Below are positions 23,018-63,125 of a DNA stretch of 64,000 bases, one piece after another; the stretch's first letter is position 1, and each line of letters starts with the position of its first letter. Where the stretch lies: the NCBI GenBank assembly GCA_038850515.1, contig JAWCLV010000002.1:1966-65965 (forward strand), written 5' to 3'. The position numbers and the translations under genes were made by a program. The notes beneath the pieces are model-generated. The model searched no databases, was not told where the DNA came from, and saw only the letters and a list, made by a program, of their open reading frames with translations. The stretch comes from Candidatus Bathyarchaeia archaeon (GTDB taxonomy: Archaea; Thermoproteota; CALKCG01; B24; JAGTQN01).

Positions 23018-23041
23018 GCCTCTACTACTTCCTTTAATGGT

Positions 23042-23186
23042 CCCGCGGTAGCTCAGCCTGGAAGAGCTTCCGATCCGGCATAAACCGGAGAAGATGCTGT
23101 AGACTTCGCCAATTCTTGGCGGAGCCATTCAGCCTTCTAGGCTAACAGAAACCGGAGCGTCCCCGGTTCAAATCCGGGCCGCGGGA
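23042..23186 (+). tRNA. tRNA-Tyr(GTA) with two BHB introns (23073-23095 at position 30/31; 23103-23150 at canonical position 37/38)
   Basis: The C1:G72 acceptor (CCCGCGG/CCGCGGG, A73) is the archaeal Tyr identity pair. D-arm is GCTC-AGCCTGGAA-GAGC and T-arm is CCCGG-TTCAAAT-CCGGG. The spliced anticodon arm is TCCGG-CTGTAGA-CCGGA. Exons total 74 nt, and 74+23+48 = 145 nt, the genomic length. Confidence 0.85.
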
Positions 23187-23262
23187 TACCTTTTCTAATA
23201 TTCTGATGAAGAAAATAAAATTCTTCTTATAAGACAATTCGATTAGTTATCCTTGATAGATT

Positions 23263-39854: not shown

Positions 39855-40256
39855 ATGGCTTCAACTGTTCGGAGGGATGTATGGGATTGGCTTGAGGAGG
39901 CTTGGGAAGAGTATAGAACGGCGCTACAATTGTTTGGGGCTGGAAGGTATGCTCATGCATGCTTCCATTTCCAGCAGGGAGCTGAAAAGGCTTTAAAAGC
40001 CCTTATCCTTTTCCATAAAAGGCTAGTGCATAGGTCCCACGACCTTTTAGAGCTTTATAGCGAAGTGAAAGACATTCTTGAGCTTGAGGAGGAAGTGAAG
40101 GAAGCCCTTCCAGAGCTTTCCGCTTACTATACGCAAGCTCGATATCCAAACGCAGGTTTGAGGAGACCTTCTCTTGAGATCGGCAAAGTTCAGGCCGAGA
40201 GGGCTTTGAAAATCGCTGAAGGTGTTCTAAATGCCGTCTCTAGAAGGGTTACCTGA
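39855..40256 (+). CDS. HEPN domain protein
   Basis: 133 aa. FHFQQGAEKALKALI and the SHDLLEL (RxxxH-like) region. Overlaps the downstream nucleotidyltransferase gene. Confidence 0.75.
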   Translation: MASTVRRDVWDWLEEAWEEYRTALQLFGAGRYAHACFHFQQGAEKALKALILFHKRLVHRSHDLLELYSEVKDILELEEEVKEALPELSAYYTQARYPNAGLRRPSLEIGKVQAERALKIAEGVLNAVSRRVT

Positions 40257-40545
40257 AAAATTTAGGAACGCTATAAGCGCCTTTCTAAAGGCTCTGGAGG
40301 AAAACTTCAAAGGGGGATTCAGCGTCTATCTTTTCGGAAGCTTGGCTAGGGGCGACTATTTGTTAGATAGCGATATAGACATTATCGTAGTCATGGAGGA
40401 ATTAAGGAGCTTAAAACCTTGGGAAAGAACAGCAATGCTTAGAAGGATAGCACCGAAGGATGTGGGCTTCGATATCATAGGTTATTGCGAGGAGGAATTT
40501 AAACGGATGCGGGAATACTTTGAACCCTTATTGAGACTTAGATAA
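40231..40545 (+). CDS. minimal nucleotidyltransferase (MNT) domain protein
   Basis: 104 aa with the LFGSLARGDYLLDSDIDI motif. Overlaps the HEPN gene by 26 nt. Confidence 0.8.
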   Translation: MPSLEGLPEKFRNAISAFLKALEENFKGGFSVYLFGSLARGDYLLDSDIDIIVVMEELRSLKPWERTAMLRRIAPKDVGFDIIGYCEEEFKRMREYFEPLLRLR

Positions 40546-49371: not shown

Positions 49372-50709
49372 ATGTATGACCTCATCATTGCGGGGGCAGG
49401 AACTGCCGGATGCTTGGTGGCAAAGACAGGGGCATCCTTTGGGCTTAAGGTTTGTCTCTTGGATGCAAAGCCCCTTTCAAGAATAGGGGATAAGGTATGT
49501 GGCGATGCCATTGGGAAGCATCATTTCGACAAGCTTGGCTTGGCCTATCCAAAAAACGAAGAGCTCACTGGCGAGCTGAAGGGTTGTAAGGTCCTATCAC
49601 CAGATAGCCAGACCTCTTTTACCATAGAAGGCCTCGGAGCCAAGGCCTTCATGGTAAACCGCCATGCCTTCGGCCAACGCCTTCTTAAGGAAGCTATGGA
49701 TGCGGGTGCCCTTGTCCTTGAAAGAACCATAGCCTTGGAACCGATTTTTCAGGATGGATTCATTCGAGGTGTAAGGGTCCTAGGACCTAATGGAAAAAGG
49801 GAGATGCATGGGAGGATTATCGTAGATGCTACAGGGTTTCAAGGAGCCTTGAGGAAAAGGCTTCCACCCAAGCTAGGCATACAGGTGCAGGTTGCCCAAG
49901 AGGACCTTCAGGTTGCCTATAGGGAAATTAGGGTCCTTGAGGCACCCTTGGAAAATCAAGACTATGGGCTTATCTTCCTAGGATCGAAGATCGCCCCGGG
50001 AGGATATGCATGGCTATTCCCGAAAGGAAGGGAGATAGTGAATGTAGGCGTCGGAGTCCAGGCGAGGGAGGGGTATCCAAATCCAAAGCGTCAGCTTTCC
50101 CTTTTCTTGGAAGAACATAAGTTTTTGAAGGCTTCGAAAGTCTTGGATGCAGGGGGTGGAATCGTTCCAACAAGGCGACCGCTTCTATGCCTTGTGGCAG
50201 GAGGCTTCATGATCGTAGGGGATGCAGCATGTCAGGTGAACCCTATCCATGGAGGGGGTATAGGGCCTTCCATGACAGGTGGGAAGATGGCGGCGGAGGC
50301 TGCCGTAGAGGCTTTGGAGAAAGGGGAAGCAAGCCGGGAAAATCTTTGGAGCTACTGCCTCCGATACCTAAGGGGCTATGGGGCTAAGCAAGCCGTCCTT
50401 GATGTTTTTAGGCACTTCCTTCAAGAAGCTAAAGATGAGGAGCTTAACTATGGCATGAGCCATCATATCATTGAGGAGGAGGATGTCCTAAAGGTAAGCC
50501 TCTATGGAGAAGTGAGGCTAAATATAACTGAAAGGGCAAGGCGCTTTTTCAAGGCGAAGGGATGCCTCGGCTTCCTCCTACGCCTAAGAAGGACTACAAG
50601 GCTTATGAAGAGGGCCAAGGAACTTTATGAAGCCTTCCCCAATCCTGAAGATTATGAAAGGTGGCTCAAGGCAGAAAATAGGCTTTTCGAAGAGGTTCGG
50701 AAGCTTTAG
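49372..50709 (+). CDS. geranylgeranyl reductase family flavoprotein (digeranylgeranylglycerophospholipid reductase-like)
   Basis: 445 aa. YDLIIAGAGTAGC is an FAD fold. Also GDKVCGD and VGDAACQVNPIHGGGI. Confidence 0.85.
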   Translation: MYDLIIAGAGTAGCLVAKTGASFGLKVCLLDAKPLSRIGDKVCGDAIGKHHFDKLGLAYPKNEELTGELKGCKVLSPDSQTSFTIEGLGAKAFMVNRHAFGQRLLKEAMDAGALVLERTIALEPIFQDGFIRGVRVLGPNGKREMHGRIIVDATGFQGALRKRLPPKLGIQVQVAQEDLQVAYREIRVLEAPLENQDYGLIFLGSKIAPGGYAWLFPKGREIVNVGVGVQAREGYPNPKRQLSLFLEEHKFLKASKVLDAGGGIVPTRRPLLCLVAGGFMIVGDAACQVNPIHGGGIGPSMTGGKMAAEAAVEALEKGEASRENLWSYCLRYLRGYGAKQAVLDVFRHFLQEAKDEELNYGMSHHIIEEEDVLKVSLYGEVRLNITERARRFFKAKGCLGFLLRLRRTTRLMKRAKELYEAFPNPEDYERWLKAENRLFEEVRKL

Positions 50710-50785
50710 GAGGCTTTGTAAAGCCAAAGTGAAAAAGAAAAAGACTTTAACTCCTGCTTTCTATAAAAGGACGAGGAAGATCCAG

Positions 50786-51503
50786 TTGGGGCTTGAGGAA
50801 CAGAAGGAAAGGCTCATACAAGCCTACATACGCCAGGGCATCCTTCAAACTCCATCCGTCATCGAGGCCTTTCGAAGGACGCCTCGGGAAGAATTCCTTC
50901 CGAGGGACTTAAGACCCTATGCCTATAACGACACCCCCCTTCCAGTTGGATGGGGACAGACCATATCGGCGCCTCTTAGCTCGGCCCTTGGGACCGGCTA
51001 GGCGATACATGGTTTGTATAATGAATGAAAGCCTGGAGCTTAAGCCTGGGCATAGGGTCCTCGAGGTTGGAGCAGGGACAGGATATCATGCCTGTACGAT
51101 AGCTGAAATAGTTGCTCCTTTAAGTCTTCCACGGGAAAGGAGAGGGCATGTCTGGACGGTAGAAATCGTTCCCCAACTGGCCGATTTTGCGAGGAAGAAC
51201 GTGGAAAGACTTGGATATGGAGATAGGGTTGATGTTATTCTTGGGGATGGCTCCCTAGGCTTGCCGAAGTATGCACCCTACGATAGAATTCTCGTGACTG
51301 CTTCAGCACCTGACATTCCAGAGCCCCTCTTCGAACAGCTTGTTCCAAAGGGAATTCTCGTCATTCCTGTAGGGCACATATCCTTTTATCAAGAGCTCCT
51401 TCGTGTTCGGAAAAGGAGCGATGGCTCAAAGGATGTGGAAAGACTTGGAGGCGTAGCCTTTGTTCCTTTGAGGGGGGAAAAGGGCTGGAAGTTCTCATGG
51501 TAG
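50786..51503 (+). CDS. pcm: protein-L-isoaspartate O-methyltransferase, interrupted by a 31-nt BHB intron; exons 50786-50975 and 51007-51503
   Basis: Two overlapping-frame ORFs (50627-51001 and 50919-51503) carry the N- and C-terminal halves of PCMT (GQTISAP / MVCIMNESLELKPGHRVLEVGAGTGY). Joined at the BHB sites they give 687 nt, or 228 aa. The start is uncertain: TTG 50786 or GTG 50729. Confidence 0.75.
50976..51006 (+). other. predicted bulge-helix-bulge intron inside the pcm coding sequence
   Basis: Central helix CGCC (50970-73) pairs with GGCG (51001-04). The 3-nt bulges are TCT (50974-76) and ATA (51005-07). Inner helix TAGC (50977-80) pairs with GCTA (50997-51000) and extends through CGG/CCG. 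Cutting after the second bulge nucleotide on each side removes 31 nt. Confidence 0.7.
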
Positions 51504-51574
51504 TTTCTAATCTCAACTAAATAATAAAGGGAATTCTCAGACATCTTTCGAAATAGAAGAAGGAGGCGCCGTGT

Positions 51575-52024
51575 ATTTCTTCCCAAATCCGAAAATCGCA
51601 GCCTAAAAGGCTAGAATTCATAGAAGCTCATGGCCACCCTAACATTACAGCCCTCCATAGGACGACCTTAGAAATTACTAAGGAAAAGAAGCTTACGCCA
51701 AAGGGCACATGCATAGTTGCCGTAGGAGCTACTAAAGGGGCAGCAGACCTAAGCCCCTCCTTCAGAGAGCTCGTACGCATGGGGGGATTCGTAACCCTAA
51801 GGCTGAAGGTTGACGATATGATCTTTGAAGTCCATGGAAAGGGTGCAAAGGAACTGGAGCTGAGTCATCCAACGGATATCGTTTGTAGGAAGAGTTCTTA
51901 CATTTGTCAAAGAACACTCATGATAGATGCTGACAAAGCGGCCTGCGATGTTCCTAGGCGAATGGTTGAGATGTTGAAGGATCCAGCTAAGACAATAAGG
52001 ATCGAGTTGGAAGCTTCAATCTGA
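51575..52024 (+). CDS. DUF371 family protein (start codon unresolved)
   Basis: The frame is open from 51557. EAHGHPNITALHRTTLEITKEKKLTPKGTCIVAV matches the DUF371 N-terminus and lies upstream of the first ATG (51779). No ATG, GTG or TTG precedes it in frame. ATT at 51575 lies 8 nt after GGAGG. Confidence 0.55.
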   Translation: MSSQIRKSQPKRLEFIEAHGHPNITALHRTTLEITKEKKLTPKGTCIVAVGATKGAADLSPSFRELVRMGGFVTLRLKVDDMIFEVHGKGAKELELSHPTDIVCRKSSYICQRTLMIDADKAACDVPRRMVEMLKDPAKTIRIELEASI

Positions 52025-52037
52025 TTTAGATTCCTCT

Positions 52038-53120
52038 TTACGCTCCAAACTTCTTCCTAAGCTCCCGTCGTCTCACGAAAGCGTCTATGACGATTTGGTA
52101 CTTGTGGGGGGCTATTTCCCTAACAATTCTCTTGGCAAGAACTCTAGCCTCCACTCCCTGGCATTCTATCGAATTCTTCAGAGTTTCTTCGGCATCCTTC
52201 AAAGGATCTGGATCCCTTGCAAAACTGTAGAAATGGATTATGCCGCCTTCCGGCTTAAGGGCCTTCAAAGCAGTATCTAAAAATTCAAATGCCTTTGATG
52301 GAAGGTTCATGATGATTCGATCACCGATGCCCTTTAGCCTTTCCTCCACAACCTCCCTTGCATCGCCCTCAAGGACGGTCACAAGACCCTGGACCCTGTT
52401 CTCTATGACATTTTCCATCAAGTATTTGACGGCATAAGGATTTACATCGATGGCAAAGACCCTCCCGTTCTTTAAGCGCTTGGCAATTTGAATGGCGAAG
52501 GGACCAACACCAGAGAAAAGGTCTATGACCGTTTCTCCGGGACCCACAAAGGACGCAACTCGTTGACGCTCGAAGGAAAGCCTAGGGCTAAAGTAGACCC
52601 TCGAAACATCCAAGCGAAAAATGCATCCATTCTCACGATGCATCGTTTCCGTAGAACCCGTTCCGGCTATGACCTCTAGGTCCCTAACCCTTTCCATTCC
52701 ATAAACTGCTCCTTTCTCTGCCATTACGAGACGTATGTGCCTATAGAGACTGAGGACCCCTTCCCCTATGGAATTCCTGAAGTCCCAGAGGCTCTTAGGA
52801 AGTCTCAAGATGGCTATATCTCCAATAATGTCTAGGCTCTTAGGAAGCTTTGATAGCACTTCCTTAGGAAGGTATAAGGCTAGGGCATCCTTAAGACATC
52901 TTGGCCTTTTGAAAGCCTTTCGACAGGAGGTTTCCAAGATTTTCCAATCCTTTCCAAGGTTGGTATCAAGCTCTACGGACGAAGGATTCCTAAGAATTGG
53001 AATGTAGAGGAATTCGCCCTTCCGAAGAATCTGGTACGATTTATCGATGATTTTCATTGCCCTGAGTAATGTTATGGCATCTTGACCCTTTTTCTTATGA
53101 ACTTGTAGGCAGAGGGTCAA
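52038..53120 (-). CDS. trm5: tRNA (guanine37-N1)-methyltransferase Trm5/Taw22 family (Met-10+ like)
   Basis: 360 aa. SAM motif VIDLFSGVGPFAI, plus NLP and the family architecture. Confidence 0.8.
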   Translation of the reverse strand: MTLCLQVHKKKGQDAITLLRAMKIIDKSYQILRKGEFLYIPILRNPSSVELDTNLGKDWKILETSCRKAFKRPRCLKDALALYLPKEVLSKLPKSLDIIGDIAILRLPKSLWDFRNSIGEGVLSLYRHIRLVMAEKGAVYGMERVRDLEVIAGTGSTETMHRENGCIFRLDVSRVYFSPRLSFERQRVASFVGPGETVIDLFSGVGPFAIQIAKRLKNGRVFAIDVNPYAVKYLMENVIENRVQGLVTVLEGDAREVVEERLKGIGDRIIMNLPSKAFEFLDTALKALKPEGGIIHFYSFARDPDPLKDAEETLKNSIECQGVEARVLAKRIVREIAPHKYQIVIDAFVRRRELRKKFGA

Positions 53121-53169
53121 AGATGAAGGCCTCTATCTGGCTTTCTATACTATCCAATGGCAGACAATG

Positions 53170-53177
53170 TTTATAAG
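53170..53177 (+). promoter_or_regulatory. TATA box upstream of tRNA-Lys
   Basis: TTTATAAG ends 22 nt before the duplicated GGGCCCGT leader and 30 nt before tRNA position 1. Confidence 0.4.
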
Positions 53178-53207
53178 CAAACCATATATTCATTGCTTTG
53201 GGCCCGT

Positions 53208-53326
53208 GGGCCCGTATGGCTAATGCCAGGGAAGCTCAGCAAGGTAGAGCGGCAGGCTCTTAACCTGTTGGACGTCTCCTTGGAACGTCCGGGGAATGGT
53301 CAGGGGTTCGATTCCCCTCGGGCCCG
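53208..53326 (+). tRNA. tRNA-Lys(CTT) with two non-canonical BHB introns (53217-53233 at position 9/10; 53269-53296 at the anticodon-stem/variable-loop junction)
   Basis: Acceptor GGGCCCG/CGGGCCC plus G73. D-arm GCTC-AGCAAGGTA-GAGC. Anticodon arm GCAGG-CTCTTAA-CCTGT. T-arm AGGGG-TTCGATT-CCCCT. Exons sum to 74 nt, and 74+17+28 = 119 nt, the genomic length. Confidence 0.85.
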
Positions 53327-53469
53327 CTACATCTTTGATCCGATCGATAAAAATAGTATTTTTTTGAGTCATTTTCTTTTTATGAAAAGTAATTTTCACC
53401 TTCGTAAATAAAATTTAAAGGAAAGAAGTTTGATAAGAAAAGCAAAAAGTATTTAAGTTTATATGAGTC

Positions 53470-62800: not shown

Positions 62801-63125
62801 ACGTATCCCCTGGTCTCGCCGTCCCACTCCAAGAAGATGTCGCCCTAGGCTCTCCATATACGCTACTAAATCCTTCAGGCAACCCCAGAGTCCCTGTCGC
62901 GCCCGTAATGTTTGAGCTTAGCTCGTTTCTTAAAACGACAGTTAGGATATTGGACTGGGTCCCCGGATATGCCTTCACTGGATTCCTTGGACTCCCCCAG
63001 TAGGAATCTATGACCGTAATAGCCTCATTTCCCAAAGTCCTTTGCCCAATAGGAAGCCAAGCTGCGAATACGAAGGAAACCATAAGCACAAGGCTGAAAA
63101 TCTTCAGCATTTCGTACTTCCTCAT
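59889..63125 (-). CDS. large secreted/surface-anchored protein with tandem CARDB/COG1361-like beta-sandwich repeats
   Basis: 1078 aa. N-terminal signal-like hydrophobic segment and a C-terminal TM anchor followed by RYVRRMKLRS. At least six repeats of the pattern (S/V)xWG...P(G)...L(x)LxNxG...LPxGF. Confidence 0.7.
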   Translation of the reverse strand: MRKYEMLKIFSLVLMVSFVFAAWLPIGQRTLGNEAITVIDSYWGSPRNPVKAYPGTQSNILTVVLRNELSSNITGATGTLGLPEGFSSVYGEPRATSSWSGTARPGDTFTLAYQIDVAEDITPGKYEANLTVQYVLYDGSRGLQNGLKVALYIDPVPSIKLAIVNSFWGEPGESELALPGSRDLSFTIQVLNLDNYDLTGVVATLRLPTGLFGRYSENALNDILGTIPIGGYGTAIFRGIYVSSDIAERYRAQDSILTPSGMISIEYTFNLEGKLVRSKYGEVAVRMPIYTHRTGSLALSGLSWSYGGDPIAPIAGAENIDLAISLVNLGEYAISASSIRIEAPSGFKVKALRPGNLQPIAPGGSASITATFDLSDGLQPGSYRLTLRLEYILETGGSGSISTESLSIPIEIYDASSIDTSIELISVYWGSPNNPMDAIPGVQDAPLTLELVNRGRRTAYGLTVEYDLPSGMMPSQSPRTSVSMTMNPGSIATATIEVDIDPKAKPGFYNISFKLEYSVIYAGASLRRLKVFSSNVKLDQPPIGYGYLELASVDWGQGQPVYPGDENVTLTLTFVNRAPYTISGLLLRMKFPEGFAAKGDASKIYAPGAIARSASRNVDMTISIDKSAHPGTYTLEASCDYLLESGGYGIRLNESYAFNVTLNTLEGGLEFVQSLWYGTSAGPGDTGIQLVILLRNLEIPSMMGVVGDVELPEGFIVSTTGEAKGRFASVSLAGALPSQFFTSGIIPPTIPFEVQPRAAFNLGDYLYFVVPVTIDPSAIPGIHAFNLRVSFLDQWNTPQSVVVNCSLYLLGSIKLIDVEPIATDVPVGGCGNFSVRIVNRGSSPAYDVYFIFLNMPPGVSLEKQVFYIPRIEAGNSIIAETQAYGNPNAPYKGALTAVAMISFKDCYGYSRRYNATFLVNVKGRIEFKLLDLTVVPSPAYKGARITISGLLLNIGRETAKHVSVYLKECEELRLKQESSQYLGNVDPDAQMPFILEAEVMTDIGSYTLFIGADYMDEYGGSYHQTYAAKIEVGELPKPPQPSLEELLYRIAPIAIASAFLVVMGYLILRYVRRMKLRS

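Follow-up and report, generated by a model that had tools for sequence, protein, structure and literature searches.

The pcm gene of a hot-spring Bathyarchaeia archaeon, which encodes a protein-repair methyltransferase of the PCMT family, is interrupted by a 31-nucleotide (nt) element that is very probably a relaxed bulge-helix-bulge (BHB) intron, cut by the splicing endonuclease EndA and ligated by RtcB. The gene lies on a 64,000-nt stretch of contig JAWCLV010000002.1 (positions 1,966 to 65,965 of the forward strand), which is called the window here and to which the coordinates of the gene and its surroundings refer. We infer splicing from comparative sequence rather than observe it, and the same holds for EndA cleavage, RtcB ligation, circularisation of the intron and any regulatory role.

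In the window, the PCMT reading frame is carried by two pieces. The upstream open reading frame (ORF, 50627..51001) ends ...GQTISAPLSSALGTG, with the stop codon TAG at 50999-51001, and the downstream ORF (50919..51503), one frame over, reads ...ARRYMVCIMNESLELKPG... The position of the TAG agrees with the first-pass annotation, in which the frame was said to break after GQTISAP and to resume in another frame. Removal of the 31 nt from 50976 to 51006 gives ...GQTISAPHMVCIM, with the junction ...GCG CCT C|AC ATG GTT..., or in nucleotides ...GCGCCTC|ACATGGTT... at 50975|51007. The predicted junction peptide is TISAPHMVCIMNESLELK, which reads ...TISAPHMVCIM... Exon 1 (50786..50975, + strand) begins with a TTG start codon and has 63 codons (MGLEEQKERL...GQTISAP) followed by C, the first nucleotide of a His codon; the start was chosen by comparison with the gene calls in two related loci, L014 and L017. 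The putative intron (50976..51006, + strand) is in phase 1, and the unspliced frame meets the TAG within it. Exon 2 (51007..51503, + strand) supplies the AC that finishes the His codon and continues as MVCIMNESLELKPG...EKGWKFSW to the stop codon at 51501-03.

The predicted spliced product, from the TTG at 50786 to this stop, has 228 amino acids. It matched Pfam PF01135 (PCMT) over profile positions 2-208 of 210 with an E value of 2.8e-62, and its score of 210.7 bits against a cut-off of 20.3 places it in the family. Across the junction it was aligned without gaps to the solved PCMT structures PDB 2yxe, 1jg1 and 4o29, and the GQTISAPHMV stretch, including the SAPHMV motif, was aligned to 1jg1 and 4o29. 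A full-length PCMT is therefore predicted on excision of 50976-51006, and the earlier proposal that this would restore both the frame and the His of SAPHMV was borne out.

The sequence around the insertion can be folded into a BHB, whose coordinates and letters, as first described, were all exact when the window was read again; all of its parts are on the + strand. The central helix (H) is formed by the exonic CGCC at 50970..50973, in the Ala-Pro codons GCG CCT, and the intronic GGCG at 51001..51004. It is flanked by a 5' bulge of 3 nt, UCU (TCT in the DNA) at 50974..50976, and a 3' bulge of 3 nt, AUA (ATA) at 51005..51007, where the putative cuts are 50975|50976 and 51006|51007, respectively. 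The inner helix (h') has its 5' strand at 50977..50986, with UAGC paired, U50981 bulged and CGGCC paired, and its 3' strand at 50991..51000, and the loop is at 50987-50990; within this helix TAGC (50977-80) pairs with GCTA (50997-51000) and CGG (50982-84) with CCG (50994-96). On the exonic side, G50969 closes the 3' bulge and pairs with C51008 as the sole conserved pair of the exonic helix (h). A candidate distal helix of 9 bp (50956..50964 with 51009-51017), which brings Gln-Thr-Ile codons against Met-Val-Cys codons, appears in the minimum free energy (MFE) fold of the window. The 68-nt region around the intron folded with -28.6 kcal/mol (z = -3.16).

The motif alone has no statistical significance, since there are about 2000 relaxed BHB candidates in the window. 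A scan gave 983 and 1001 candidates on the two strands when it required a 4-bp helix with no more than one G:U pair, two 3-nt bulges, 4 bp or more in the inner helix and at least 1 bp in the outer one. The density computed from these counts is about 1.1e-4 per pair of start and end positions, so that a BHB falling by chance on the pair that restores both the frame and the His would be improbable. For the question of a pcm intron we take the comparative data to be decisive, and not the motif alone.

Among GTDB species representatives, 9 of 13 pcm loci were broken at the same site. These genomes are Bathyarchaeota or Bathyarchaeia metagenome-assembled genomes (MAGs), except one labelled 'uncultured archaeon'. 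The closest genome locus (L001, in MAG QZM_A2_bin_28) has a protein identity of 97%, and the nearest database proteins are C-terminal fragments of 164 amino acids with identities of 99, 89 and 82%. The same split was found in contigs that encode the 164-amino-acid fragments (ENA, JGI and Logan read-level assemblies), and an identical intron was present in three independent Logan assemblies (L018-L020). A scan of metagenomes provided 80 further pcm loci. Of all 101 pcm loci, which come from independent assemblies, 71 have the insertion right behind the first base of the His codon, a proportion that is not an unbiased frequency, because PHMVCIM, one of the two peptide patterns used in the metagenome scan, matches intron-less genes only. 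The insertions are 29 nt (5 loci), 30 nt (35), 31 nt (8), 32 nt (3), 33 nt (15), 34 nt (1), 36 nt (3) or 39 nt (1) long, and 46 distinct intron sequences were obtained. The remaining 30 loci read straight through GCN CCN CAY ATG without interruption.

In a neighbor-joining (NJ) tree of the spliced products, intron-bearing genes, from hot springs as well as sediments, are spread over the greater part of the Bathyarchaeia pcm diversity sampled, and several intron-less clades are nested among them. The tree is only indicative, and it fits an old gain of the intron in Bathyarchaeia, followed by repeated precise losses in sublineages. The possibility that the intron is a dispersed mobile element was rejected because it was found in pcm only: when 0.79 Mb (counting both strands) was searched with a structure-aware pattern, there were 50 matches, 48 of which were the pcm intron, and the two others were one chance match occurring in two loci, antisense to an intact FEN-1 gene.

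The comparison of variants was anchored on the splice sites and included 57 distinct variants. All four pairs of the central helix were formed in 57 of 57. At the second position of this helix, G:C (49 variants) changes into A:U (7 variants) via one G:U, a covariation between exon and intron, namely between the wobble base of the Ala codon and a base of the putative intron. The inner helix consists of nine pairs, and a single position shows as many as six standard pair types; 92.3% of the cells of this helix were paired, and eight of the nine pairs were changed on both sides. The 5' bulge is TCT (UCU) or ACA in nearly all variants, and the 3' bulge is AAA, AGA or ATA (AUA) across them. The gaps in a MAFFT alignment of the 46 variants were confined to the loop. 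From this family RNAalifold predicted de novo the central helix, a 3-nt bulge and the inner helix, with compensatory changes in 9 of 12 pairs. The covariation score was 0.333, compared with 0.177 after shuffling (0 of 500 reached 0.333) and 0.02-0.11 in controls in which the partners were slid by 1-3 columns.

On the exonic side, the equivalent of G50969:C51008 is G:C in 55 and G:U in 2 of the 57 variants. Beyond this lone pair of helix h, the next position was paired in 11 of 57 variants and the following one in none (0/57). The distal 9-bp helix was 73% paired across the family, its wobble positions pairing in about 58-60%; it consists of conserved codons and was rejected as a part of the motif, since it showed no convincing covariation.

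The geometry of the canonical tRNA intron at 37/38 implies that both sites are cut after the second bulge nucleotide. In the pcm loci this cut would create CAC in 69 and CAT in 2, that is, His in 71 of 71 loci over eight length classes, and would leave a complete PCMT frame. Judged from the bulge sequences, a cut after the first bulge nucleotide would give Asn, Asp or Tyr, and a cut after the third would give Leu, His or Arg. Because His is obtained in every variant only with the cut after the second nucleotide, we infer this position for both sites.

The same rule had been calibrated on tRNA introns of the window in the first-pass annotation, and we reproduced it with tRNA-Lys(CUU) (53208-53327). 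This gene contains two introns at non-canonical positions: intron 1 is 17 nt long (53217-53233) and follows nucleotide 9, and intron 2 is 28 nt long (53269-53296) and follows nucleotide 43. Both have a relaxed BHB with three of the four central pairs, and their removal by the rule left a perfect cloverleaf of 75 nt, which argues that the organism does process relaxed introns at non-canonical positions.

Some further features of the tRNA genes were observed. ARAGORN and Rfam misread the tRNA-Lys(CUU) gene as Val or as a partial tRNA, and the 8-nt acceptor start GGGCCCGT of this gene is duplicated directly upstream (53200-07). A second tRNA gene (23041-23187), which ARAGORN called Arg-CCG, has an intervening sequence of about 73 nt. 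None of the BHB-intron combinations tried left a clean cloverleaf; the gene may have several introns, or one with a very relaxed motif.

The coding sequences on both sides of the pcm insertion are under strong purifying selection. In exon 1, the ratio of nonsynonymous to synonymous substitution rates (dN/dS) between the window and its relatives was 0.03-0.05, and at the start of exon 2 it was about 0-0.06. An in-frame stop codon is present in each of the 34 distinct introns whose length is divisible by 3, compared with 31% of composition-shuffled sequences. The stop in 32 of these introns is a TAG or TGA that occupies intron nucleotides 6-8, within the inner helix, and the alternation of TAG and TGA is mirrored by CTA and TCA on the partner strand; introns of this kind occur among those of L017 and L025-L100 (e.g., L028, 1501-2202). 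The stop embedded in the helix suggests selection against translation of the unspliced mRNA. With introns of the other lengths, the frame is shifted and soon runs into a stop. Taken together, the dN/dS values, the in-frame stops and the length classes exclude a pseudogene, an artefact, a single frameshift rule and readthrough.

Based on these observations, we propose that pcm is transcribed as a pre-mRNA containing the 31-nt BHB intron. The last exon 1 bases C-G-C-C, in the Ala-Pro codons, would form the 4-bp central helix with the GGCG that lies close to the intron's 3' end, the variable intron hairpin of 7-10 bp would serve as the inner helix, and the 3-nt bulges UCU and AUA would hold the splice sites. 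EndA would cut both bulges behind their second nucleotide (50975|50976 and 51006|51007), and RtcB would join the exons into ...GCG CCU C|AC AUG..., which encodes SAP-H-MV. The excised intron would be released, probably as a small circle. Full PCMT would be made from the spliced mRNA only, and translation of the unspliced mRNA would end at the stop carried by the intron. In a 2026 survey, whose coverage includes Bathyarchaeia, each of the circularised or near-complete archaeal genomes that were examined had EndA and RtcB (PMC12918454).

Several points weigh against this proposal. The first is the structure of the motif. In the strict definition of hBHBh', h and h' each have at least two Watson-Crick pairs (PMC7714728). 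The pcm element has two opposite 3-nt bulges with exactly 4 bp between them and about nine pairs in the intron-side h', and it falls short of two Watson-Crick pairs in the exon-side h. The outer helix had been described as weak, with G50969:C51008 only, and we found the same lone pair to be the conserved one; its predicted pairing probability is 0.001, which places the 3' splice site of the window in an internal loop rather than in a clean 3-nt bulge. The MFE fold of the window also prefers a register shifted by 1 nt, in which U50974:A51000 has a probability of 0.59, compared with 0.40 for the canonical register. Since there is a single conserved exonic pair, G:C or G:U, the sequences indicate that the pcm motif is a relaxed BHB and not a strict hBHBh'. 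It agrees with the relaxed HBh' type, as its 5' site is a canonical 3-nt bulge between H and h'; its 3' site comes directly after H, within a 3-nt bulge or an internal loop.

The other points concern the searches, the tree and the enzyme. In the protein and contig collections we found no assembled spliced transcript or near-identical intron-less copy, no full-length protein more than 65% identical to the spliced product of the window or more than 77% identical to that of L028, and no intron-less contig more than 80.4% identical in nucleotides to an intron-bearing one. The NJ tree behind the gain and losses was built on a short protein and is not robust. The host EndA is presumed to be of the broad-specificity type, (alpha-beta)2 or epsilon2, for which the two relaxed introns of tRNA-Lys(CUU) are indirect support; no EndA gene was found in the window, where no search was aimed at it. 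Finally, an ATG, the Met codon of HMV, stands directly after the intron, so that separate translation of the C-terminal part is possible.

The other explanations of the broken gene, namely a split protein, cleavage without ligation, recoding, and a pseudogene or artefact, are unlikely even as a group. Separate translation is the basis of a split gene, in which the insertion is kept and an N-terminal piece of 63 residues (plus a short tail) and a C-terminal piece of 164 residues are translated apart and assemble into an active enzyme. Gene callers do annotate both ORFs (e.g., 71 and 164 amino acids in L014), the 164-amino-acid proteins form the clusters P0001, P0002 and P0004, and an ATG is always present after the insertion and a stop always within it. 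However, this ATG encodes the invariant Met of SAPHMV and is present in intron-less genes as well, and the protein would either lose the conserved His or carry Asn, Tyr or Asp upstream of its start. Restarting translation needs neither a 4-bp helix with two 3-nt bulges nor covariation between exon and intron over 46 variants. By eye, there is no obvious Shine-Dalgarno sequence before the internal ATG (GGCGAAAC), whereas the real start has GAGGA. We consider a split gene quite improbable.

The chances are just as slim that EndA cleaves the BHB without religation of the exons, in which case the element would be a built-in destabiliser or down-regulator of the pcm mRNA. Conservation of the BHB shows selection on the structure only, and the yeast endonuclease TSEN is known to cleave some mRNAs without splicing (PMC10485636). 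Cleavage alone could not yield a full PCMT, and yet each exon shows strong purifying selection in its own frame. The cut sites also recreate the His codon in 71 of 71 loci in spite of eight intron lengths. Nor did a second pcm turn up: the window has no other copy, and each of the 13 genomes yielded a single match at most.

Translational recoding is very improbable, whether as a frameshift, as a hop of the T4 gene 60 kind or as stop readthrough. A short structured insertion with a stop near its 5' end is superficially like the T4 gene 60 bypass, but the insertions, at 29-39 nt, fall into all three phases, and no single frameshift rule fits them. The in-frame length classes contain stops, and readthrough would add 10-13 residues to the SAPHMV active-site motif with loss of the His. 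Matching take-off and landing codons were not evident in the listed junction sequences, and the conserved feature is the BHB geometry rather than a slippery site. A pseudogene or an assembly artefact, although it is the usual cause of a single broken ORF in metagenome-derived sequence, is hardly credible here, as identical or homologous insertions recur across many samples and pipelines, in assemblies independent of one another (GTDB MAGs, ENA, JGI and Logan) and in loci whose proteins are 57 to 99% identical, dN/dS is about 0.03-0.05 on both sides, and the inserted sequence evolves through compensatory changes.

A scan of the whole genome for further frame-restoring BHB motifs had been recommended in the first-pass annotation. 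Ours was made within the 64-kb window, where none beyond pcm was convincing: there were 49 frame-joining candidates, and only pcm survived among the best, which were inspected. The candidates at 63046-63122, 40244-40301 and 51480-51586 were chance fusions of adjacent intact genes, and the neighbors fused in the chance candidates were an ABC ATPase and a large surface protein, a HEPN/minimal nucleotidyltransferase (MNT) pair, and pcm and DUF371.

The surroundings of pcm were also examined. Upstream of the TTG start, the sequence GAGGA is found at 50773-77, 8 nt from the start codon, and the TATA-like sequence TCTATAAAAG at 50760-69, about 20 nt from it; given this spacing, the leader of the pcm transcript may be very short. 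In the window (49372-53327) and in L014, L015, L018 and L019, the gene order is geranylgeranyl reductase, pcm, DUF371 and, on the opposite strand, a Trm5/TYW2-like methyltransferase, which in the window is followed by the intron-rich tRNA-Lys. In the DUF371 region downstream of pcm (51571-52024), the frame is contiguous from 51602 and has no in-frame ATG, GTG or TTG. A GGAGG with a GTG at 51571 is well placed and opens another frame, which stops at 51604-06. This arrangement is shared with L018, where an ATG is present, and partly with L001, and the ortholog in L014 is a single ORF. DUF371 was rejected as a second intron host, being a contiguous gene whose oddity is a missing start or a possible +1 shift and not a BHB; the oddity may reflect +1 recoding, a non-canonical start or a shared indel. 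Elsewhere in the window, two overlapping small ORFs (39855-40545) were judged by eye to be a toxin-antitoxin-like pair of HEPN and MNT proteins.

The mechanism proposed for pcm is of a known kind; what is new is its host gene, its lineage and how broadly the intron is conserved. The first-pass annotation took the intron of cbf5 to be the only one known in archaeal mRNA; this did not hold, because a BHB intron in the 5' untranslated region (UTR) of Haloferax HVO_1309 is on record (PMC7714728, PMC10485636). In reviews up to 2023, the archaeal mRNA introns removed by EndA are these two only, cbf5 in the coding sequence in Crenarchaeota and HVO_1309 in the 5' UTR in Haloferax, and more are expected. 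Full-text literature searches, which did not extend to subscription-only papers, returned no report of a pcm intron or of any mRNA intron in Bathyarchaeia, in agreement with the earlier view that the pcm intron is a new case.

The closest known system is the cbf5 intron of Desulfurococcales and Sulfolobales (Watanabe 2002; Yokobori 2009, PMC2738675). Like the pcm intron, it is short, lies within the coding sequence and is routinely missed by genome annotation. It has a relaxed BHB-like motif, and it is cut by EndA before the exons are ligated, as we propose for pcm. It is likewise confined to particular lineages, and an ancestral gain with independent precise losses has been inferred for it (PMC2738675). 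Unlike cbf5, which encodes a pseudouridine synthase, the host gene is pcm (PF01135), and its hosts are Bathyarchaeia, including marine-sediment and hot-spring clades, rather than Desulfurococcales or Sulfolobales; the pcm intron is thus not of the cbf5 type, and the two do not share an origin. For the cbf5 intron, cDNA and in vitro cleavage have provided confirmation; the support for the pcm intron is so far comparative. The HVO_1309 transcript of Haloferax volcanii (Schwarz 2020, PMC7714728; PMC10485636) is also an mRNA with a BHB and a substrate of EndA, and removal of the intron matters for expression. The HVO_1309 intron lies in the 5' UTR, where no reading frame depends on it, and it is known from one euryarchaeon only; that of pcm breaks the coding sequence at an active-site motif, and its conservation extends across a class.

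The tRNA introns of Thermoproteota at non-canonical positions, which are of the relaxed HBh' type (Marck and Grosjean 2003; PMC3241643), share with the putative pcm intron the 4-bp helix, the 3-nt bulges, the cut after the second bulge nucleotide, the weak exonic helix and the size range. Such relaxed introns are present in the same window in tRNA-Lys. The pcm intron differs from them in that its host is an mRNA, codons constrain the exon bases of its central helix, and what splicing would restore is a reading frame and not a cloverleaf.

Outside archaea, the HAC1 and XBP1 mRNAs are cleaved by IRE1 and ligated by RtcB or Trl1, and their intron is short and structured (26 nt in XBP1). A role of RtcB in XBP1 splicing is noted in PMC8718801. 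As proposed for pcm, excision is non-spliceosomal and catalysed by proteins, it changes the reading frame, and a tRNA ligase joins the ends. HAC1/XBP1 splicing differs in using IRE1 instead of EndA/TSEN and twin stem-loops, and it is a proven stress-regulated switch. More speculatively, and with the balance of our judgement against it, the pcm intron may be more than a tolerated relic, namely a conserved post-transcriptional switch, in which PCMT synthesis would be gated by the activity of EndA and RtcB or by temperature- or stress-dependent folding of the BHB, the stop in the helix would silence the unspliced mRNA, and pcm would be the tip of a wider set of mRNAs spliced by EndA in these uncultivated archaea.

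If the pcm intron is spliced as proposed, pcm would be the second archaeal protein-coding sequence known to need RNA splicing. So far, protein-catalysed mRNA splicing in archaea has one coding example (cbf5) and one 5'-UTR example (HVO_1309). The pcm intron would add an independent case in another gene and another major lineage, together with a large natural dataset of 46 variants and intron-less sister clades, in which an exon codon and the intron co-evolve, at the Ala wobble base, so as to maintain the BHB. How introns are gained and precisely lost in prokaryotes could be studied in this system. It would also mean that pcm is systematically mis-annotated in Bathyarchaeia, as two fragments or as a pseudogene, and that inferences of metabolism and completeness from MAGs can miss genes with BHB introns. 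Should the intron also act as a switch, it would be an archaeal counterpart of regulated unconventional splicing of the HAC1/XBP1 type.

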